From a virus (taxonomy: Duplodnaviria > Caudoviricetes), in the IMG/VR virus record IMGVR_UViG_2675903060_000001, positions 32,001 to 96,000 of that record: a stretch of DNA of 64,000 nucleotides. The stretch is one strand, 5' to 3'. The notes under the pieces are model-generated. The model was not told the origin of the DNA, ran no database searches, and saw only the letters and a list, made by a program, of their open reading frames with translations. Below are positions 11,385 to 41,275 of this stretch, piece by piece. Positions within the stretch are counted from its first letter, which is position 1, and every line of letters starts with the position of its first letter. The position numbers were made by a program, and so were the translations under genes.

Positions 11385-12848
11385 ATGCCTGCGGCGGTCC
11401 GCCAAGTCACGTCGGCCCCGTCCGGCACGGCAGCCGCGTTCACCTGCGCCCGCCCGCCCACCGCCGTCGCCGGGGACCTGCTCGTCGCCTACCAGGCCGC
11501 CGACATCGGCGACCTGACCGTCATGGGCGCCCCGTCCGGCGGCGGGACGTGGAACCTGCTCGTCGCCCGCCAGTGGGGGTCAGGCTCCGGCGCGGGCGTG
11601 AAGCTCTGGTACAAGACGCACGGCGCGTCCGAACCGACGAACTACAGCTTCTCCCAGAACGGCCAGGCGGACGGCCTCGCCATCGTCGTCGCCCTGTCCG
11701 GCGCGGCCACCCCGATCCTGTACCAGCCGCTCGACACCTACACCCCGAACGTCTTCCCAACCAGCCACAACACGCCCGGCATCACGCCAGGTGGGCCGGA
11801 TGACGTCGAGCTGCGGTTCATCGGATCGCCGTCCGGGTCGGCCACCACGTGGGGAGCACCCGCCGGCTTCACCCCCGGCACGAGCGTGCAGTCGCAGATC
11901 TACACCACGGCCTCGCTCGCTCACCGCGTCCTGAGCTCGTCAGCCCCGACCGGCACCGCGGCATTCACGTCCTCGCCCGGCCTGTCGCTGACGATGGGGT
12001 TCACGCTCGCGATCCCCTCGGCCGGTCCGGCGCTGGTGACCAAGAGCGGCAGCGACACCGCCGTGGCGGCCGACCTCGCGACGCCATCGGTGACGCTGAT
12101 CCGCCCGGACTCGGCCACGCTCACCGAGGAGGCGGCGGCGGGCCCGGCCGCCGCCGACGCCGCCACCGCAGCCGAGGACGCGGCGGTGGCCGCCGGGCCC
12201 GGCACCGGCGACGCCGCGGCCCTGGCCGAGCAGGCATCCACGGTCTCGAGTCCTGCCCGCGTCGAGACGGGCGCGCTGGCGGACGTGTCCGCGCTGGTCG
12301 TCTCCCTGTTCCGGGACGACTCCGCCTTCCTGGTCGAGCAGGCCAACGTCGGGCTCGCCGCCCTGGACGCCGCCACGCTCGCCGAGACGGCGGCGCGGGA
12401 GGAGACGATCGGCCCGTCCACCGGGGACGCGGCGGGCACCGCCGAGACGGCAGCCGTCGCCGGCGCGGCGGGCGCGGCCGACGAGGCGGCCCTGACCGAG
12501 TCGGCGCGGGTGGACGTGCTCAAGCAGTCCAGCGACTCGGCGGCACTCGCCGAGCACGCCGACGCCGGCCCCGTCGCCGCCGACGCGGTGGCCCTGACCG
12601 AGTCGGCGTCGGTGCTCGTCGTCATCGACGCCTCCGACAGCGTGACCGCCGCCGACGCGGGCGCCGCGCTCCGGCCGGTCGCCGCCATGGACTCGGCGAC
12701 CGCCACGGACTCCGCCGCGGTGGCCGAGGTCGGGCGGGCGCTCGACAGCGCGGACGGGCCGCGCCGCCTGTGGCACGCCAGCCTCGCGCCGCGCCCGTGG
12801 CGCGCTGAGCCGCCCCGCCGGTCCTGGTCCGCGACGCACCTGACGTAA
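11385..12848 (+). CDS. Putative virion surface/fibre protein with Ala/Asp-rich repeats
   Basis: N-terminal beta-rich domain (GDLLVA), C-terminal D-x-A-x-L-x-E repeats. Confidence 0.6.
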   Translation: MPAAVRQVTSAPSGTAAAFTCARPPTAVAGDLLVAYQAADIGDLTVMGAPSGGGTWNLLVARQWGSGSGAGVKLWYKTHGASEPTNYSFSQNGQADGLAIVVALSGAATPILYQPLDTYTPNVFPTSHNTPGITPGGPDDVELRFIGSPSGSATTWGAPAGFTPGTSVQSQIYTTASLAHRVLSSSAPTGTAAFTSSPGLSLTMGFTLAIPSAGPALVTKSGSDTAVAADLATPSVTLIRPDSATLTEEAAAGPAAADAATAAEDAAVAAGPGTGDAAALAEQASTVSSPARVETGALADVSALVVSLFRDDSAFLVEQANVGLAALDAATLAETAAREETIGPSTGDAAGTAETAAVAGAAGAADEAALTESARVDVLKQSSDSAALAEHADAGPVAADAVALTESASVLVVIDASDSVTAADAGAALRPVAAMDSATATDSAAVAEVGRALDSADGPRRLWHASLAPRPWRAEPPRRSWSATHLT

Positions 12849-22054: not shown

Positions 22055-22261
22055 GTGTCCTGGCTGGACCTGCTGACCCGCTGGGACCTGATCGAGGCTG
22101 ACCTGCACCAGACGTACGGCATCGACCTCGACCGGTCGGGCGCACTGCGCGACCGGTCGTGGCGGTGGCTGCGGACCCGGATCGCCGGGCTGCTCGTGTG
22201 TGACTCGCGGATCGCCCGCGCGCTCGACCCCGGCGACGACGGCCCCGGCCGCCGCCGCTGA
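22055..22261 (+). CDS. Tail assembly chaperone C-terminal (gpT-like) part
   Basis: Typical actinophage motif; probably expressed by frameshift. Confidence 0.7.
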   Translation: MSWLDLLTRWDLIEADLHQTYGIDLDRSGALRDRSWRWLRTRIAGLLVCDSRIARALDPGDDGPGRRR

Positions 22262-22287
22262 CCCCTCCCTCCCCCTTCTCTCCTTCT

Positions 22288-27350: not shown

Positions 27351-30080
27351 GTGCAGGTCATCACGCCCGGACGTCCGGAGCCGTACGCGCTGCGGCTGAC
27401 CGCCTACGCCCCGAACGGCGCGCGGCTCGGGACGCTGCCGCACCACCTCGGGTTCGAGGCCGGGATACCGCTCAACGACGTGCCGAGCCTGCGACTCACC
27501 TACCCGGCGGCCGGCGCGGGCGCCGAGCTGCTGACCGCGCCAGTGGAGATCGCCGTCGAGGTGTCGGTCGGCGGCGGCCCGTGGCTGGAACCGAACGACG
27601 CCCGCTTCCTGCGGATCAAGCGGGGGAGCAACGCCACCGACGCCACCGGCGCGCGGAGCTACGACTGCCCCGGCTACGCGTGGATGCTGCGCAAGCTCGT
27701 GCTGCATCCAGGCCCGGTCATGGTCGAGGGCAAGCGGCCGTTCTCCGCCGTGTCGGCGGGGGCGATCCTTCGGACGTTCGTGGACGAGGGCCACGCGCGC
27801 GGCACGCTGCCCGGCCTCGCGGTGGCGTTCACCACCACGCACGACTCCGCCGGGCAGCCGTGGGACAAGACGCTGACGCTCCAGGTAGAGCCCGGCGCGG
27901 ACCTGCTCACTCTCCTGCTCAACCTCAGCGAACAGGGCGTGCTCGACTGGACGATGACCGGCCGCACCCTCCGCGCCTACAACGAAGGCACGATCCTGGG
28001 CGAAGACCTCGCCGCCGGGCACGCTCCGGTGGACCTGCGGCTCGGCCGCGACATCGACGACGCCCCCGCGACCGCAACTCTCGAGGATCTGGCGTCGGCG
28101 ATCCTCGTGCGCGGCGAGGCCGGGCTGAGCGTCGAGGTGACCAACCCCAGCGCGCCGCAGCCGTGGGGCCGGTGGGAGACCGCCCAGTCCCAGGGCGGCG
28201 TGGCCGACGAGGGGACGGCGATCCTCCTCGGCACCAACGCGCTCGCCCGCGCCGGCCGAGAGAGGACCCAGCTCACGCGCGGCATCCGCGTCGAGGCGGC
28301 GCGGTGGCTGCCGCTCGTGCACTACCGGCCCGGAGACCTGGTGCTCGCCCCCGGCGAGACCGGCGCGATGGAACCGGTCCGGGTCCGGCAGATCACCGTG
28401 TCCGTGGGCCAGGACGGCGGCATCGGCGGCAACCTCGTCCTGCACGACCGGTTCATCGAGCGGGAACTGCGGCTCGCCCGCCAGGCGGCGGGCATCCTCG
28501 CCGGCGGCGTCTCCTCCGGCGGGACGGGCGGCACTCCGGCGCCGGAGCCGTCCGGCCGCGTGGCGGCGGCCCCGGCCGGGCTCATCGTGGAACCGGCCGC
28601 GTACACCGACGAGCACGGGTTCGCCCGCGGTCAGATCACGGCCACCTGGACGCCGGTCACCGCTGACGTGAACGGCGTCGCCCTGGACGTGGACGGCTAC
28701 GAGCTGTACGCCCGCGTCAACGCGACCGGGCAGGTGTGGCGGCACATCGCCACCAGCGACGACACCACGGCGACGTACTCGCCGCTCGTCGTGGCCACCA
28801 CGTACGCATTCAAAGTCCGCGCCACCGCCGCGGGCACCAAGGGCGCGTTCGGGCCGGAGTTCGTGGTCCTGGTCCCGGACGACGTCACCCCGCCGCCCGT
28901 CCCCTCGACGCCGGTGCTCTCGACGCGGCTCGGCGTCATCGACGCCGCATGGAACGGCCTCGGGTCGTCAGGCGAGCCGATGCCGCCGGACTTCGAGCAC
29001 GTCCGGGTGCACATGGCGGCCGACGCCGAAGGCCCGTGGACAGTCGTGGATCACCTGCGGGCGGCCGGGTCCGCGCTCATCGCCGACCAGCCGTACAACA
29101 CGCCGCGCTGGTTCCGGCTGACGTCGGTGGACCGGCGCGGCAACACCTCGGCGCCCTCGGCCGCCGCCTCCATCGCGACGCAGCCGCTCGTCAACGGCGA
29201 CATCATCGGCGAGGTCATCGACGGCGCGAACATCGTGCCCGGCACGGTGAACGCGGCCGACGCCGTCATCGCCAACACGATCACCGGAGGGCTCATCCAG
29301 GCCCTCGCCATCGAGACCCCGCACCTCAAGGCCAACGCGGTCACGCTCGACAAGCTCGCCGCCGGGTCCGTGGACGCGACCCGGCTGACCGCGACCGCCA
29401 TCGACGGCAAGACCATCACCGGGGCGTTCATCCGCACCGCCGCGACCGGCCGGCGGCTGGAGTTCGCGCCGCCCGGCGCGACGTACCCGGAGATGCGGTT
29501 CATCCCGGCCAGTGCCGGGAGCAACTACACCCGGCTGAGGACGCGCGACGACCAGTGGCCCGGCGAGGCGACGTTCGAGATCACGAGCGGAACCAACTCG
29601 GGTGTGACCGCCGCGAGCCAGACCTCGATCGCGGCTGGGTTCATGCAGATGCAGGTCAGGGACTCGACCCTGTCGAATCCCAATGGTGGGCTCATGGAAC
29701 TGGCCGAGTCGTATGCCCGGTACGGCTACTTCCGCAGCGCCGACCGCGAGCAATACTTCTGGTTCGACAACTCCGGCCGCACCCGCCACGTCGGCAAGTG
29801 GTGGGACTTCACCGCACTCGGCCCCACCGCGGGCATCCTCGCCGGCTCCGTCACCTTCGCCTCGGCCGGGTCGGGCGCGAACATCCGCTTCCTGTCCTAC
29901 GGCGCGTCCATGGACGGCAACATGGGGCCCGTCGTCGTCATGCGGCGCGGCCTGTCCAGCCCGACCTCGCACACCCCGTCCGGGTCGTGGTACGTGACCG
30001 AGTCCCTCCAAACCGGCTTCCGGATCTCCACCAGCTTCCCGGACGGTTTCGCGATCTACTGGTGGGCTCACCGGCATTGA
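27351..30080 (+). CDS. Minor tail / central fibre protein with fibronectin III domains, paralog B
   Basis: Hub domain, then TYAFKVRA and SVDRRGNTSAPS FnIII motifs, AVTLDKLAAGSV repeats, C-terminal beta domain. Confidence 0.85.
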   Translation: MQVITPGRPEPYALRLTAYAPNGARLGTLPHHLGFEAGIPLNDVPSLRLTYPAAGAGAELLTAPVEIAVEVSVGGGPWLEPNDARFLRIKRGSNATDATGARSYDCPGYAWMLRKLVLHPGPVMVEGKRPFSAVSAGAILRTFVDEGHARGTLPGLAVAFTTTHDSAGQPWDKTLTLQVEPGADLLTLLLNLSEQGVLDWTMTGRTLRAYNEGTILGEDLAAGHAPVDLRLGRDIDDAPATATLEDLASAILVRGEAGLSVEVTNPSAPQPWGRWETAQSQGGVADEGTAILLGTNALARAGRERTQLTRGIRVEAARWLPLVHYRPGDLVLAPGETGAMEPVRVRQITVSVGQDGGIGGNLVLHDRFIERELRLARQAAGILAGGVSSGGTGGTPAPEPSGRVAAAPAGLIVEPAAYTDEHGFARGQITATWTPVTADVNGVALDVDGYELYARVNATGQVWRHIATSDDTTATYSPLVVATTYAFKVRATAAGTKGAFGPEFVVLVPDDVTPPPVPSTPVLSTRLGVIDAAWNGLGSSGEPMPPDFEHVRVHMAADAEGPWTVVDHLRAAGSALIADQPYNTPRWFRLTSVDRRGNTSAPSAAASIATQPLVNGDIIGEVIDGANIVPGTVNAADAVIANTITGGLIQALAIETPHLKANAVTLDKLAAGSVDATRLTATAIDGKTITGAFIRTAATGRRLEFAPPGATYPEMRFIPASAGSNYTRLRTRDDQWPGEATFEITSGTNSGVTAASQTSIAAGFMQMQVRDSTLSNPNGGLMELAESYARYGYFRSADREQYFWFDNSGRTRHVGKWWDFTALGPTAGILAGSVTFASAGSGANIRFLSYGASMDGNMGPVVVMRRGLSSPTSHTPSGSWYVTESLQTGFRISTSFPDGFAIYWWAHRH

Positions 30081-33402: not shown

Positions 33403-33440
33403 TCTGTCTCTTCGCAGATCAATGCCTCACACCGGGGAGG

Positions 33441-33686
33441 CTACCTGCCCGAGGGGATCGCAATGGTGAGCTCTACCCCGGTGCTCGTCACGATGATGAC
33501 GAGCACGAGAAGGACGAGAAGCTTCCATCCTCGCCCCACAGGGTTGTAGACCTGGCCGGCTGTGATGATGCACGGCTGGTAGATGGACCCGAGGGTAGCG
33601 AGAGTGTTAGCCACTACCTTCTTAATGGCTTCGTAGGGGACTACGAAGCCTCCTTGGTTAATGTAATCAGGTTGGTAGTCGGTCAC
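33441..33686 (-). CDS. Small membrane protein (lower-GC moron)
   Basis: C-terminal TM WKLLVLLVLVIIVT; AT-richer codons. Confidence 0.5.
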   Translation of the reverse strand: MTDYQPDYINQGGFVVPYEAIKKVVANTLATLGSIYQPCIITAGQVYNPVGRGWKLLVLLVLVIIVTSTGVELTIAIPSGR

Positions 33687-34079
33687 TGTCTTATGTCTCT
33701 CTCTTACTAGAGAGCCTGCTATCCAACCTGTTAGTGGAGTCCTGTAGCTCCCCGGTTTAACTTAATCCGGTACGATGGAGCTGCACAGTACAGGAGTCCT
33801 ACCACGAACAGGCTGGTAGCGGGCTCGGTACCTTGGGGGGGTCTGGTCGCTCCAACGACCAGCCCCCCCCGTTTGCCGTTCCAATAGTAGCCGCACTCAG
33901 GACACTCTGTGGGGTTTGGCCTTTGACGTGCGGAAACGCAAGAACGTGCGCAGAGAATTGCGTAGATGGGCGCGCAGAAACGGGGAGTCCCAAAGGACAA
34001 CATGGCCATCCCCAGACCTCATAGTGGAGAGACGAGAGGGTTCTTGGCGATTGAACCCTCGCCCGCGCCACAGGACATA

Positions 34080-34113
34080 GAAGGCCCCACCCGCTCCGGC
34101 GGGTGGGGCCTTC
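34080..34113. terminator. Intrinsic terminator
   Basis: GAAGGCCCCACCCGC-TCCG-GCGGGTGGGGCCTTC perfect stem downstream of 34121 gene. Confidence 0.85.
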
Positions 34114-34120
34114 TTCGCGT

Positions 34121-34327
34121 TCAGATGATCAGTGTGGGCCAGCCGTCGAGTTCCACCTCGTGATTCGGGATCACGTACAGCAGTTCGTGCTCGCTCTCGC
34201 CGTATCCGTGCTCGGTGGCCCACTGCTGTGCGTGCTCGGGCAGGTCGTCCCAGTCGATCCCTGATGCGGCCAGTTCGACGGCGCCCTCGGGCATGATGTC
34301 GCCGGCTGATGCGGAGATGAGAGTCAT
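34121..34327 (-). CDS. Very acidic small protein (possible anti-defence/DNA mimic)
   Basis: GGAGG RBS; 68 aa with 14 D/E and no K/R. Confidence 0.7.
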   Translation of the reverse strand: MTLISASAGDIMPEGAVELAASGIDWDDLPEHAQQWATEHGYGESEHELLYVIPNHEVELDGWPTLII

Positions 34328-34507
34328 GACCATGATTCCTCCTGGGGGACATGCCGAAGCGGGGTTATCCCTCCAGGGTGATGAAGTCAGCGGGCCTGGG
34401 CTCCGCAACCGAGGGTACAGCGGCTACCTGCCGCCGGTCCTTGGGTCAGCCTGCGTACTTCAGGCACTGCCACCGTCGGGCGCGGCAGGCTGGATGCCGA
34501 GCATGGC

Positions 34508-34885
34508 TCACTCGGCCTCACCACCAGACGAGCCCATTTGCAAGGCCCAGCCGCCTTGACGCCACGACCAGCCGTAGTCAGGGATGCCCACGAGGTGCCG
34601 GAGGGTGCCGTCCTCGGCCTGCTCGATGAGCTGGGTGGCCTGGTCCTCGTACTCGTCGTAGTGGCCTCGCCCGCCGTGGGCGGCGTGCAGGGCCGCCATG
34701 AGGGCGATTCGGGCCTCGTCCGCCACGTGGTAGGCGAGATTCACCTTCGCGATGTTCTCTGGTGTGGTGGTGCTGTGGCGGGCGTTCTCCGCCTCGAAGG
34801 TGGACAGCTTGGTTTTCGCGCGGCTGGCCAGTGCCAGGAGAATCGCTTCGCTGCCCTCGGGAAGGTCGCTCATCGGCACCTTCAT
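34508..34885 (-). CDS. Small helical hypothetical protein
   Basis: AGAAGAGG RBS before MKVPMSD; GC3-rich. Confidence 0.7.
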   Translation of the reverse strand: MKVPMSDLPEGSEAILLALASRAKTKLSTFEAENARHSTTTPENIAKVNLAYHVADEARIALMAALHAAHGGRGHYDEYEDQATQLIEQAEDGTLRHLVGIPDYGWSWRQGGWALQMGSSGGEAE

Positions 34886-34934
34886 GATCATGACCTCTTC
34901 TCTGCGCAGAGTGATTCGGGAGTCGTCAGGACTC

Positions 34935-34986
34935 CCGTGGACCCCCACCTGCGTGAGGAGAAGGACCCCGCATGCACGGGGAGCAG
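34935..34986 (-). repeat. Two overlapping type I-E CRISPR-repeat-like hairpins without spacer
   Basis: CTGCTCCCCGTGCATGCGGGGTCC and CTTCTCCTCACGCAGGTGGGGGTCC resemble recalled actinobacterial I-E repeats (CTGCTCCCCGCGCACGCGGGGATGGTCCC type). Confidence 0.5.
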
Positions 34987-34994
34987 TTCCGAGC

Positions 34995-35185
34995 CTACGC
35001 GTCTGGCAGGCCAGGGTCGTGGCGTCTCACGATCTGCCAGTATTCGTCGCTGGGAATGGCGTCGATGCTCGTGATTCGTAGCCGTAGGTGCTGCCGATTT
35101 CCTCGATGATGCCTTCGATGTCGAAGGTGTCCGGGTGATCGCCAAGGGTTTGGCGTATGGCAGTTGCCAGGTCTTGCTGGGTCAT
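34995..35185 (-). pseudogene. Small acidic protein with apparent 1-nt frameshift near 35075
   Basis: MTQQDL...STYGYE continues in another frame as ITSIDAIPSDEYWQIVRRHDPGLPDA*; AAGGAGG RBS. Confidence 0.55.
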
Positions 35186-35955
35186 GTTCCTCCTTCGCTC
35201 TGTAGAGATAGTGCCTGTTCGAGAAAGCGCACGCGGGCCGGGTTGGCGATGATGCGCAGGAGCTCCACCGCCCGGCCGCGCCCGTCCGCGATGACCTGGT
35301 CGGCGGCCAGCACCCATGCCCCGGCCGCGAGACCGAGCCCCTTCGCCTCGTCGCCGGTCGCGGGCCGCGCCCCGATGGCGCGGCGGACGACGGCGGCGGG
35401 GGCGTGCCCGGCCTGGGCCAGCGTGCCGTAGATGCCGCCCGGCACCTGCTGCTTGGCCGCGATCGGCGTGCCTTCGACCAGCTCGGCCGGGTAGATCGCC
35501 TCGTCCAGTCGGACCGGGACGTCGCCGGCGTGCGCGGTCCGGGCGCGGATCACGACTGCGGCGCCGGGGGCGACGCCCAGCAGGGCCGCCTCGTCCTGGG
35601 CGGCGGCCCTGCTGGTGACGGAGGTCGTGACCGTGCGCCCCTCCAGGCCGGCGAGCTTGCAGCATTCGGCCCAGGGGAGGGGGCCGTGGCCTAGCGGGTT
35701 GTGGAGTGTCAGGTCCACGACCGGCGGGTTCGGATCTTGGACGATCATGCCGACCGCCGCGTTGCGGCGGATCAGCCCTTCCTCTTTGAGGATCTTGTAC
35801 GCCTTGAGCAGGACGTTGTCGGAGCCGAGTCCGTATTTCCTTATCAGGTCGCGGGTGTGGGGAAGCGGCTGGCCTACGGGGTAGATGCCGCTGACGATCT
35901 TCGCGCGGAGATCGTCAGCGACCTGCTGGTAGCGGGGGAGGGGCTTCTCGGCCAT
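35182..35955 (-). CDS. GntR/HutC-family regulator with UTRA domain
   Basis: PRYQQVADDLRAKI.SG.YPVG..LP wHTH; UTRA-like C-terminus. Confidence 0.9.
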   Translation of the reverse strand: MAEKPLPRYQQVADDLRAKIVSGIYPVGQPLPHTRDLIRKYGLGSDNVLLKAYKILKEEGLIRRNAAVGMIVQDPNPPVVDLTLHNPLGHGPLPWAECCKLAGLEGRTVTTSVTSRAAAQDEAALLGVAPGAAVVIRARTAHAGDVPVRLDEAIYPAELVEGTPIAAKQQVPGGIYGTLAQAGHAPAAVVRRAIGARPATGDEAKGLGLAAGAWVLAADQVIADGRGRAVELLRIIANPARVRFLEQALSLQSEGGT

Positions 35956-36006: not shown

Positions 36007-37341
36007 TCACGCAGCAGTGATCAACTCGTGGAACTCGCGGGCCTGTGCCTGGTCGGGCCACCGCGACATCAAGATCGCATCCAGGCGCACCAGCTCCGCC
36101 CGCACCGACTGTGAACCCGCCTCCGTCGCGATCACCAACGCCTCACCCGCCGTCATCGCCGCCTCGTCGGGTGCCTGCGCGGCGGCGTGCGCGTGCGCCA
36201 GCCGCGCCATGTAGCTGGCCTTGTCCCGGCGCTGCGTCGGCCGCAACCCCGTGATGCAGCTCGTCAGCAGATCGACGGCCTCACCGGGCCGCCCCGCCTC
36301 CAGGTACGCCGTCGCCGCCTCCGCGTCCCCGAAACGCGAGCCGTAGAACCGCAGATACCCCGGCGTCTCCTCGCCCGGCGACACGGCCAGCAACTCGCCC
36401 GCACGCTCCATGTCCGCGTCCGGTCGGCCGCCGGCGAGCGCCCGGCCGCGCGCCAGGTAGGCGTGACCGATGCCGGCCAGCACGGGCGGGATCGGCCACG
36501 ACGGGTTGACCGCCTGCTCGGCCAGGTCCAGCGCGGTCCGGTGGTCACGCCCGTCAAGCGCCAGCGACGCCTTGCGGAGCTGCATGTACGTCACCATCGG
36601 GTAGTCGCCGCTGTCCATCGCCCACAGCGCGGCGCGCTCGGCCCAGGCCAGGCAGCCGGACAGGTCCCCGGCCTCCTTGCTCAACCAGCTCAGGTGCTCG
36701 GCGTACGCGCCCTGCACCGTGCGGAGCTTCCGGCGGGTGGCCGCGTCGCACGACTGCCGGATCTGCTCGATCCCGTCCAGCCGCTTCCGCAGCGCCTCGA
36801 TGTGCACCGCGGGCGGGAACAGGTGGTGCGCGTCCTGGTGCCCGACGAGGAACCGGGTGGCGTAGGCGACCGGGTCCTCGTCGCGAGGCCAGGCGGGAGC
36901 CGACACCGCGGCGGCGGGTGCGGCCGGGAGGACTCCGGCGCCGCCGGCTGCGAGAAGCCCGAGGAGCGTGCGGCGAGACAACGACACGTGGACCACCTTC
37001 CCGGCGATGCTGATCGGCACGGTGACCGCGTCGTCATCAGGGTAATCGCCGCCGTTCGACATGGACATCTCCAGGATGCCCGGAATGGTGTTGCGCGGCG
37101 GAAAGAGTGTTGCGTTTTGTGTTGCGCCTTGCCGCAACACCACAAGAAGGCCGTCCGTGTGAAGTACCTGGTCAACGGCCTTCACCGCAGAAGGCGACAG
37201 CCGGGCCAGGCCGTTCTCGGCGCGGGAGATGCGGCTCGGGTCCACGCGCGCCGCCTTGGCTAAGCCCCGGACGCTGAGCCCTTGAGCCTCGCGGAAATGG
37301 CGCATGACCTGCCCGAACAGGACTGCTGTGCCGTCTGGCAT
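36007..37341 (-). CDS. XRE-family HTH regulator with helical-repeat C-terminal region
   Basis: FGQVMRHFREAQGLSVRGLA...ISRAENG; LSRRTLL linker; GGAGG RBS. Confidence 0.88.
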   Translation of the reverse strand: MPDGTAVLFGQVMRHFREAQGLSVRGLAKAARVDPSRISRAENGLARLSPSAVKAVDQVLHTDGLLVVLRQGATQNATLFPPRNTIPGILEMSMSNGGDYPDDDAVTVPISIAGKVVHVSLSRRTLLGLLAAGGAGVLPAAPAAAVSAPAWPRDEDPVAYATRFLVGHQDAHHLFPPAVHIEALRKRLDGIEQIRQSCDAATRRKLRTVQGAYAEHLSWLSKEAGDLSGCLAWAERAALWAMDSGDYPMVTYMQLRKASLALDGRDHRTALDLAEQAVNPSWPIPPVLAGIGHAYLARGRALAGGRPDADMERAGELLAVSPGEETPGYLRFYGSRFGDAEAATAYLEAGRPGEAVDLLTSCITGLRPTQRRDKASYMARLAHAHAAAQAPDEAAMTAGEALVIATEAGSQSVRAELVRLDAILMSRWPDQAQAREFHELITAA

Positions 37342-40192: not shown

Positions 40193-41275
40193 GTGACCAC
40201 CCAGCCCAGCACTCAAGGCCACACGCGATGGCCGTTGTGGGGCCTGCTCGTGTTCTGCGGGGGCATCTCCCTGACCCTGAGCGTCATGCACGCGATGGAG
40301 AAGGCCGCAGACGGAGACGATCTGGCTCTGGTGAAGGGCTTCCTGATCGGCATCGCGCCGGTCATCGCCGCCGCGTTCCTAGCGCATCTGCTCACCGACC
40401 CCTACGCCTCCCCCTTCCTGAAGGGCGGCGTCGGGATGGTGTTCCTGGGCGGCATGGCGCTCAGCGTGAGCGCACAGAAGGCGGTCGTGATGCCCTTCGT
40501 TGAAGGTGACGAAGGGCTCGCGACCCTCTTCCCGATCATGCTCGACCTGTCCACGATCGTGGCGCTCCTGGCGCTGTCCGGAGTCGGCTACTCCTACAAC
40601 CGGGCCGTCCAGTTGGAAGCGCTCCGCGAGGAACTCCTGCCCGCGCTCACACGGGAACTGGAGGAGAAGTTCGCGGCGGAACTGGCCGCCCGCGAGACGG
40701 AACTGCGGGCGGAACTCGGGCGGAACAAGGAGAGGGAAATCGCGGAACTCCGGAGGGAACTCACGGAGGAACGCCGGGCGGAACTCGTGGACGTCCGGAG
40801 GGAACTCACGGAGGAACACGGCAGGGAACTCGCGAAGATCCAGCAGGCGCACAGCGAGGAACTGACCGAACAAGAGCAAGCCCTCCGGAACGAGTTCGCG
40901 ACCCGCTGGGCACACGCTGAGGAGCAGATTCGGAACGATGCCGAAGCCCGAATCCAGGACCGGGTCCGGGACGCCGAGATTGCAGCCGAGGCCCGCGTCC
41001 GGCTGGAGCTGACGAGGAGCGGCACCGCGAGTAAAGGGCCGCGCAAGGCGCTCGGCCGGGGCACCAAGGACGACCGCAAGCCGCAGGTGAGCGTGCGCGA
41101 CCGCGCCGCCGCCCTGCTCCGCGACACCCCTGACATGAAGGCGAGCGACCTCGCCACCGCCCTGGACTGCACACCGAAGTACGCCCGCGACCTGATCAAG
41201 GAGTTGGTGCCTGGTCGTGGAAACGGCCAGGACGAAACCGGCGAAGGCGGGGTGCGTCTCCATGCGGTCCCGTAG
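40193..41275 (+). CDS. SpdB2/DUF2637-like spread protein (4 TM, coiled coil, C-terminal HTH)
   Basis: ISLTLSVMHA..IAPV..MALS..LFPIMLD; E/R/L coiled coil; ASDLATALDCTPKYARDL. Confidence 0.7.
   Translation: MTTQPSTQGHTRWPLWGLLVFCGGISLTLSVMHAMEKAADGDDLALVKGFLIGIAPVIAAAFLAHLLTDPYASPFLKGGVGMVFLGGMALSVSAQKAVVMPFVEGDEGLATLFPIMLDLSTIVALLALSGVGYSYNRAVQLEALREELLPALTRELEEKFAAELAARETELRAELGRNKEREIAELRRELTEERRAELVDVRRELTEEHGRELAKIQQAHSEELTEQEQALRNEFATRWAHAEEQIRNDAEARIQDRVRDAEIAAEARVRLELTRSGTASKGPRKALGRGTKDDRKPQVSVRDRAAALLRDTPDMKASDLATALDCTPKYARDLIKELVPGRGNGQDETGEGGVRLHAVP

Follow-up and report, generated by a model that had tools for sequence, protein, structure and literature searches.

Two hairpins on the minus strand of a tailed-phage genome from the genus Nonomuraea, lying in the leader of a small orphan gene, are copies of a type I-E CRISPR (short palindromic repeats, clustered and regularly interspaced) repeat. 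The window, i.e., the whole 64-kb stretch of DNA that was analysed, covers positions 32001-96000 of a 106,863-bp contig (G000:C9:32001-96000). The best explanation, held with a probability of about 0.5, is that the hairpins are genuine type I-E repeat units on a 107-kb circular tailed Nonomuraea phage (or phage-plasmid) and that they serve as a residual decoy RNA for Cas6e. Their identity as type I-E repeats, their homology with full arrays, the conservation of their stems, and the CRISPR pressure on the phage are shown by comparison with the genus and with relatives of the phage. The leader contains the following features.

34986-34966, minus strand: hairpin 1, CTGCTCCCCGTGCATGCGGGG, with flank CUGCU, stem CCCCGU/GCGGGG and loop GCAU, equivalent to nt 1-21 of the type I-E repeat
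34963-34941, minus strand: hairpin 2, CTTCTCCTCACGCAGGTGGGGGT, with stem CCUCAC/GUGGGG and loop GCAG
34937-34917, minus strand: hairpin 3, CGGGAGTCCTGACGACTCCCG, with an 8-bp stem CGGGAGUC/GACUCCCG and loop CUGAC; not repeat-like
34902-34894, minus strand: purine tract GAGAAGAGG, the ribosome-binding site of the downstream gene, predicted to pair with a pyrimidine linker at 34955-34964
34891, 34885 and 34873, minus strand: possible start ATGs of the downstream gene

The three hairpins occupy the gap between the stop codon of an upstream small gene (34997-34995) and these ATGs. The original prediction, a reading of the window without database searches, had given the hairpin sequences and coordinates exactly, and its description of 6-7-bp stems with GCAN loops holds: hairpins 1 and 2 have 6 pairs each, including one G-U pair each, and 4-nt loops that read GCAT and GCAG in the DNA. 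Hairpin 2 begins 23 nt after the start of hairpin 1. Where the 8-nt 3' handle of a repeat would be, hairpin 1 has UCCUUCUC and hairpin 2 has GUCCACGG. With this 23-nt spacing, no spacer and no cas genes, the pair is not a bona fide CRISPR array, in which the repeats are evenly spaced, the spacers are ~32 nt long, and cas genes are usually adjacent.

Match to type I-E repeats of the genus

Cas7e was found in 24 of 110 Nonomuraea species genomes. Twenty type I-E loci of the genus were fetched, and ~1,400 array repeats were extracted. By far the commonest repeat in these arrays is family A, GTGCTCCCCGCGCACGCGGGGATGGTCCC. Families B and D read GTCGGCCCCGCGCA(C/T)GCGGGG followed by the handle GTGTTCCG or ATGGTCCG, and family C reads GT(C/G)CTCCCCACGCCCGTGGGGGTGA(A/G)CCG. 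Hairpin 1 agrees with the family A genus consensus, GTGCTCCCCGCGCACGCGGGG, at 18/21 positions, with the CTGCT-type repeats of viral contigs at 19/21, and with one unit of a real array at 20/21 (L166:16763-16791, in the G016 array). A match of 19 of 21 to an actinobacterial type I-E repeat had been claimed; the count shifts with the real repeat chosen, and the accompanying claim that both changes keep the fold is borne out. Each of the two internal changes is seen in natural arrays, and the stem is preserved.

Hairpin 2 resembles the second type I-E repeat family of the genus (CCCCAC...GUGGGG). It matches GTGCTCCCCACGCAGGTGGGGGTGAACCG from the G090 array (L188) at 20/23 positions, and its nt 4-23 match a unit beside the G052 cas operon at 19/20 (L181:12404-12432). 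Its single stem change results in a G-U pair.

A weight matrix for repeat nt 1-21 was built from the real genus repeats with all 6 stem pairs obligatory, and a covariance model was built on the complete 29-nt repeat. Across both strands of the window, the weight matrix gives 6 bits or more at two places only, 21.7 bits at hairpin 1 and 12.8 bits at hairpin 2. In the 10-Mb genome, 3 sites reach at least 21 bits, with hairpin 1 the third best, and 15 sites reach at least 12.8 bits; at that genome-wide frequency, a second match within 30 nt of the first has a chance of ~2e-5. Taken by itself, the sequence of the window is no more than suggestive; it is the relatives described below that settle repeat identity.

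A separate site at 29496-29524 (minus strand), TTGCTCCCGGCACTGGCCGGGATGAACCG, scores 21.5 bits (E 2e-4) against the full type I-E repeat model, handle included. It was judged a chance match, being antisense inside a conserved tail gene (27351-30080), and the homologous site in the related phage of genome G082 has neither the first stem pair nor the 5' flank. The G082 site retains the handle-like part.

Relatives carry the full array

Homologous loci were obtained from a DNA search in the genus and from look-ups of homologues of the GntR-type regulator encoded upstream of the hairpins. The most informative locus, L208/L209, consists of a 65.7-kb metagenomic contig and a Logan contig with the same gene order as the window. 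Its array lies between an intact copy of the small gene and a homologue of the 125-amino-acid gene that follows the hairpins in the window, and it contains the following units.

R1: GTGCTCCCCGCACCTGCGGGGATGAACCA, a full repeat with handle, 34.6 bits, E 3e-9
Pseudo-spacer: GCGGCAGTGCTCACACCCGCC, 21 nt
R2: TTGCTCCCCGTACACGCGGGG, handle-less, followed by a 7-nt pyrimidine linker
R3: CCTCACGCACGTGGGG, after the linker

The same layout recurs elsewhere. In L014 (G076, Nonomuraea sp. NPDC050786), R1 is followed by a pseudo-spacer that shares 18/21 positions with that of L208, then by R2 and by an R3 whose stem differs, CTCCGC/GCGGAG; the repeats of this locus score 31.4 and 20.3 bits, and its array is flanked by genes unrelated to those of the window. 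In L210 (N. fuscirosea), the stem-loop of R1 is the same as that of hairpin 1, and an 18-nt pseudo-spacer, R2, and a decayed R3 come after it. The pseudo-spacers of the relatives include GCGGCAGTGCTCACACCCGCC and TTGGCGGTGCTCACACCCGCC. L010 (G082), whose cassette is the closest to that of the window, has kept R1 alone (34.6 bits), fused in frame with a 5'-truncated copy of the 125-amino-acid gene. In L019 (G045), a terminator directly follows the small gene, with no repeat. Across four syntenic relatives, the full repeats have E values of 3e-9 to 3e-5. These repeats, together with those of the genus, back the central claim of the original prediction, that copies of the type I-E repeat sit on a mobile element outside any cas locus.

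In a five-way alignment, R1 and the pseudo-spacer are precisely what the window is missing, from which it follows that its tandem is R2 plus R3 of a collapsed array. Hairpin 1 is homologous to R2 of the relatives, and hairpin 2 to R3 of L208 and L014; hairpin 3 is not present in either of these two loci. The 5' end of hairpin 1 may have been derived from R1 by recombination. The tandem had been presented as a spacer-less design in its own right, a view that the relatives do not support: it is what is left of a mini-array of repeat, 21-nt pseudo-spacer, repeat, and hairpin after a repeat-to-repeat deletion. Since R2 is also handle-less in L014 and L208, the handle was lost before these lineages split, and the hairpins were kept afterwards.

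The stems have been kept while loops and flanks diverged. Over helices 1 and 2 in the window, L208, and L014, 39/39 pair cells are standard; in helix 2, both bases differ in two pairs and a single base in two others. In slid controls, 41-69% of cells pair, with at most one such change; a shuffle control with three sequences is weak (54/500). Both stems stay intact at loci where the proteins of the flanking genes have 66-76% identity.

Scans for the exact tandem pattern found none in metagenomes and, in the species genomes, just the contig of L014 and unrelated mini-arrays. One match in viral contigs lies inside coding sequence and was put down to chance. A covariance model of the tandem was run on 110 genomes from the genus and 151 from the family; it returned only its two training loci, the weaker matches being ordinary arrays.

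The lone repeat of L010 has a feature of its own (L010:2481-2509; G082:C37:51202-51230). The annotated GTG start of the fused gene coincides with repeat nt 1, and an ATG occupies repeat nt 22-24, which we take to begin at the first base past the canonical Cas6e cut site. A Cas6e cut there would leave an mRNA that starts at AUG. The idea that a lone repeat followed by gene sequence, as in L010, acts as a guide was rejected for the element of the window: the matching site in the gene of the window is preceded by CTC, and a type I-E crRNA (CRISPR RNA) requires a 3' hairpin.

CRISPR pressure on the phage

A comparison of 1,186 spacers from the fetched arrays with contig C9 gave five matches, all from one type I-E array of G002 that uses the family B repeat (L175:16021-17089), at 32/32, 30/32, 30/32, 28/32, and 27/32 positions. 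The protospacers lie at 40580-40611 of the window and, outside it, at C9:96833-96864, 103962-103993, 10-41, and 22231-22262. Their flanks show no consistent AAG-type protospacer-adjacent motif, and the preceding base equals the last repeat base in 2/5 cases. The five spacer matches indicate that this phage lineage is a real target of type I-E immunity in the genus. The stem-loop of the G002 array, CCCCGCGCATGCGGGG, is one base off that of hairpin 1.

Phage, host, and operon

The first 95 bases of C9 are identical to its last 95, which identifies it as a circular replicon. It carries phage genes for terminase, portal, major capsid, tape-measure, tail, endolysin, and holin proteins, and the contigs of two relatives are of similar length (108,394 and 102,810 bp). 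C9 may be a phage-plasmid, or a phage genome sequenced along with its Nonomuraea host. Source names of homologous proteins point to Nonomuraea as the genus. The hairpin cassette sits just beyond the lysis genes on the opposite strand, in the order XRE-type regulator, GntR/UTRA regulator, small gene, hairpins, 125-amino-acid orphan, 70-amino-acid acidic orphan, and terminator.

36007..37341, minus strand: XRE-type helix-turn-helix regulator with a long C-terminal domain, upstream of the GntR gene
35990-35962, minus strand: promoter-like site preceding the GntR gene, the only one found
35182..35955, minus strand: GntR/UTRA regulator, first gene of the operon, its stop overlapping the start of the small gene
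34995..35185, minus strand: small gene, 63 amino acids when intact; frameshifted here, intact in L010, L019, and L208
34508..34891, minus strand: downstream orphan gene, 125-127 amino acids, with its only homologue in the G082 phage
34121..34333, minus strand: small acidic orphan gene, 70 amino acids, followed by the terminator
~34079-34113, after the 70-amino-acid gene: G+C-rich terminator hairpin, common to L010 and L014

A 1-nt deletion near 35070 accounts for the frameshift in the small gene: frame 1 runs into a stop at 35027, and the conserved C terminus (IDAIPSDEYWQIVRRHD...) is read in another frame up to the TAG at 34997-34995. This is either a pseudogene or the product of an assembly error. 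The two regulators are of generic types. The small proteins of the operon match no Pfam or PHROGs family, and these two collections place none of them in a known anti-CRISPR (Acr) or anti-CRISPR-associated (Aca) family. A single homologue of the 125-amino-acid protein was found among 5.8 billion proteins; a homologous gene also follows the array in L208/L209. The 125- and 63-amino-acid proteins have no relatives in IMG/VR, and an ESM Atlas look-up gave no usable match. An AlphaFold2 model of the 125-amino-acid protein (mean pLDDT, the predicted local distance difference test score, of 56) was too poor for a fold search. The proposal of an anti-CRISPR operon of small acidic proteins is neither supported nor contradicted. 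BLAST of the 5-kb cassette against isolated phages and plasmids gave no match or a merely generic match to GntR.

Two further observations concern the surroundings. Between the cassette terminator and the holin terminator, a lower-G+C stretch of ~640 bp (33440-34080) is absent from L010 and L014; it holds one small hydrophobic open reading frame (33686-33441) with no family match and is possibly a separate insertion. The host carries an orphan type I-E array on contig C25, with three repeats of GTGCTCCCCGCGCAC(A/G)CGGGGATGGTCC(C/G). This array (G000:C25:806138-806288; L002:1376-1526) has two 32-nt spacers and an A+T-rich, leader-like stretch before it, and 2/3 of its repeats have a C-A mismatch in the stem.

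A proposed residual Cas6e decoy and its rivals

Cas6e recognises the stem-loop of the repeat, cleaves at its 3' base, and remains bound; the 8-nt 3' handle of the repeat becomes the Cas5-bound 5' handle of the crRNA. In this explanation, the ancestral element consisted of R1 with its handle, a 21-nt pseudo-spacer, R2, R3, and an accessory-gene leader. In the window's lineage, R1 recombined with R2 and the pseudo-spacer was lost; the remaining R2 and R3 would be transcribed within the operon of GntR regulator, small gene, and orphan gene. This RNA would present two Cas6e-type stem-loops, one for each type I-E stem type of the genus. In a type I-E host, it would be a ligand of Cas6e, perhaps also a substrate, and hence a competitor of crRNA maturation, in the manner of the decoys known as RNA anti-CRISPRs (Racrs). 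The collapsed RNA would lack the guide-directed repression that a full array could give. Because two Cas6e-type stem-loops are retained, a Racr-type decoy is the likely residual activity; transcription of the hairpins, their binding by Cas6e, and any anti-CRISPR effect are inferred.

Several findings weigh against a working decoy. The 8-nt 3' handle is absent from both hairpins (this part scores -10.9 bits in hairpin 1 and -6.4 bits in hairpin 2), and with the handles lost only Cas6e could be engaged, not the Cascade backbone. In the covariance model of the complete repeat, hairpin 1 scores 16 bits, with an E value of 0.013 in the window and ~2 genome-wide, a low score that is due to the missing handle; hairpin 2 alone scores 8.3 bits, which is not significant. 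Searches of the host genome for Cas6e and Cas7e found neither, in keeping with the initial remark that there are no cas genes or spacers here, and the hosts of two relatives have no Cas7e. No promoter-like site adjoins the hairpins. The pseudo-spacer of L014, searched in the 20 type I-E loci of the genus, has a best match of 16/21, no better than shuffles. Lastly, the array has collapsed twice independently, in the window and in L010/G082, which fits relaxed selection, as do the hosts without Cas7e, the frameshifted small gene beside the hairpins, and the decay of R3 in L210.

Much of this would be expected of an inert remnant, the leftovers of a decaying mimic array that have no CRISPR activity now and survive as a structured leader or spacer between genes. 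The loss of R1 and the pseudo-spacer from the window, the second collapse and the R3 decay, the missing handles, the host without Cas6e or Cas7e, the broken neighbouring gene, and the absence of any repeat after the same small gene in L019 all speak for it. We regard it as the strongest rival, with a real but clearly smaller share of the probability than the decoy. What tells against an inert remnant is that the stems are fully intact, with wobble-preserving and compensatory changes, at loci whose flanking proteins are only 66-76% identical; that the handle-less R2 of L014 and L208 implies retention of the hairpins since the handle was lost; and that the lineage is attacked by type I-E systems elsewhere in the genus.

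The original prediction had also offered a Cas6-sensing switch, and part of this idea can be made concrete. The linker would mask the ribosome-binding site, and Cas6e acting at the base of hairpin 2 would unmask it, so that the gene would be made in type I-E hosts only. For both the window and L014, the predicted minimum-energy fold does join the linker to the purine tract by base pairing. In the complete leader, the predicted probability that the tract is unpaired is ~0-0.4 at most positions. Cutting at hairpin 1 leaves this value low, and cutting at the 3' base of hairpin 2 or R3 raises it to ~0.2-0.95. In the window, little energy separates the clamped conformer (-46.1 kcal/mol) from the one with three hairpins (-43.3 kcal/mol), and a Racr and an acr gene on a shared transcript are known from RacrIC1-AcrIC5 (PMC10651486). 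However, no clamp is predicted for L208, the third of the homologous leaders. Fold z-scores are modest, at -1.5 to -2.7 (-0.4 over the larger region), pyrimidine-rich tails follow just 5/52 degenerate-handle repeat units in viral contigs, purine and pyrimidine tracts easily pair by chance, and the downstream protein has no assigned function. The switch is accordingly an unlikely reading. An equally speculative extension of these fold predictions is that the handle-less tandem could be a working two-headed RNA, combining both type I-E stem types with a Cas6e-unmasked ribosome-binding site for the orphan gene. If this were true, the phage would sense the Cas6e of a host, confine production of a counter-defence protein to the hosts that call for it, and also titrate Cas6e.

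A chance resemblance to CRISPR repeats of ordinary G+C-rich hairpins, of the intercistronic or terminator kind, would account for a few of the results. The fold of the whole region shows no extra stability over shuffled sequence (z -0.42), an Rfam scan of the window at gathering thresholds found no family, the loose pattern CCCCGN...CGGGG occurs in this 70% G+C DNA as often as expected, and an unrelated high-scoring match lies inside the tail gene. Coincidence is nonetheless strongly disfavoured by the comparative data, i.e., the syntenic full-length repeats in four relatives, the 20/21 match of hairpin 1 to a real repeat, and the adjacency of the two best matches in the window. About as improbable is a recombination site, whose repeat copies would provide the homology by which the phage integrates into host CRISPR arrays, exchanges sequence with them, or swaps accessory genes with other phages. 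The array module does have other neighbours in L014 than in the window, repeat-to-repeat deletions have occurred, an array unit of another genus (L205) reads as 12 nt plus a copy of a hairpin 1-like repeat, and integration into CRISPR arrays has been raised as an idea (PMC10651486). Against this, no integrase or att-like structure adjoins the site, the element is a circular replicon here, and nothing ties it to the orphan array of the host.

Viral mini-arrays and other CRISPR loci

A pattern scan of IMG/VR with the 5' flank and stem of the repeat returned 119 viral stretches. Their start-to-start spacing peaks at 61 nt, as in canonical arrays, with a second peak at 49-50 nt (39 cases). The shorter period corresponds to pseudo-spacers of 20-21 nt with recurring motifs, in ...CAGGGGCGTG... 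and TAGTA... classes. Such mini-arrays are found at L083:2810-3140, L108, L134:4888-5100, L057, L121, and other IMG/VR loci. The arrays of L083/L108 and L134 mix CCCCGC-type and CTCCGC-type hairpins and include some spacer-less junctions, which means that a heterotypic tandem is not unique to the phage of the window. The multi-unit array of L083 had no BLAST match among isolated phages.

Spacer-less or short-spacer units also occur outside the viral contigs. Two type I-E loci of the genus contain two-repeat units with 20-nt spacers, GAGAGGATCGGACCATGAAT and TGGTCGTGTTTCGGGCATAC (L164:2537-2614 and L175:~12516-12590), which lie in the chromosome and look like host CreR-type regulatory mini-arrays. 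The L205 unit, from another genus of the family (G166:C1, ~1732441-1732496), reads CAACGCAATTAC + CTGCTCCCCGCGCATGCGGGG directly before the next repeat and is either a spacer-less repeat duplication or a spacer acquired from a phage repeat mimic. The G090 array (L188) ends in a similar spacer-less pair.

Comparison with known systems

Phage-borne repeat mimics are, as the original prediction held, an established class of anti-CRISPR, and the lineage described here is targeted by type I-E systems of its own genus. Racrs, which are guide-less, act as RNA anti-CRISPRs and take the form of solitary repeat units in viral genomes (Camara-Wilpert et al. 2023, PMC10651486). A type I-E system served to test RacrIE1 and RacrIE2, and type I-E examples have been verified (PMC10651486). 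Like a Racr, the element in the window is phage borne, intergenic, and without cas genes nearby, and it copies a type I-E stem-loop present in the host genus. Its hairpins share an operon with small accessory genes, as RacrIC1 does with AcrIC5, if the transcription that we infer is right. Unlike a solitary unit, defined as having none other within 100 bp, the window has two units 23 nt apart. Only 21/29 repeat positions are aligned and the handle is gone, whereas SRUFinder counts a match as full from 90% coverage upward. The two units also copy two type I-E repeat families, and a promoter of their own was not seen.

Cracr RNAs are crRNA-like phage RNAs that vie for Cas proteins and turn them into repressors of cas or toxin promoters; one tested example is a two-spacer CracrIE array from a Salmonella prophage, and Actinomycetota candidates were mentioned (Liu et al., bioRxiv 10.1101/2024.10.29.618823). 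The arrays of L208/L209, L014, and L210 resemble these, with degenerate repeats around an 18-21-nt pseudo-spacer, stacked with further units, and the hairpins in the window are homologous to the distal units of such an array. The window itself has no pseudo-spacer, so no guiding would be possible. A Cracr is recognised by a match of 9 or more base pairs, PAM-proximal (PAM, protospacer-adjacent motif), to a host CreR/CreA pseudo-spacer or to a cas/creT promoter; a search of the 20 type I-E loci of the genus found neither a CreR pseudo-spacer nor a cas promoter as target for the pseudo-spacer of the relatives. With no target found in these loci, the Cracr mechanism is unproven even for the full arrays. 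Host CreR/CreA mini-arrays have been described inside CRISPR-Cas loci (bioRxiv 10.1101/2024.10.29.618823 and work cited there). The two-repeat, 20-nt-spacer units of the Nonomuraea loci L164 and L175 are of the kind that viral arrays imitate. Those units are chromosomal and lie within cas loci, whereas the hairpins of the window are on a phage whose host has no Cas6e or Cas7e.

The element adds a documented Actinomycetota case to two very recent RNA anti-CRISPR classes, Racr and Cracr. The picture is unusually complete: an intact array in relatives, two independent collapses, two type I-E stem types copied, and congeneric spacers against this very phage. It illustrates how such arrays decay in hosts without Cas proteins, and it provides matched pairs (full vs. 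collapsed array, one hairpin family vs. the other) for testing what a repeat mimic requires. The survey of IMG/VR adds a distinct 49-50-nt period class with recurring pseudo-spacer motifs among contigs that bear the repeat motif. Given the sequence comparisons assembled here, the element is better classified as a collapsed representative of a class described recently than as a new kind of system.

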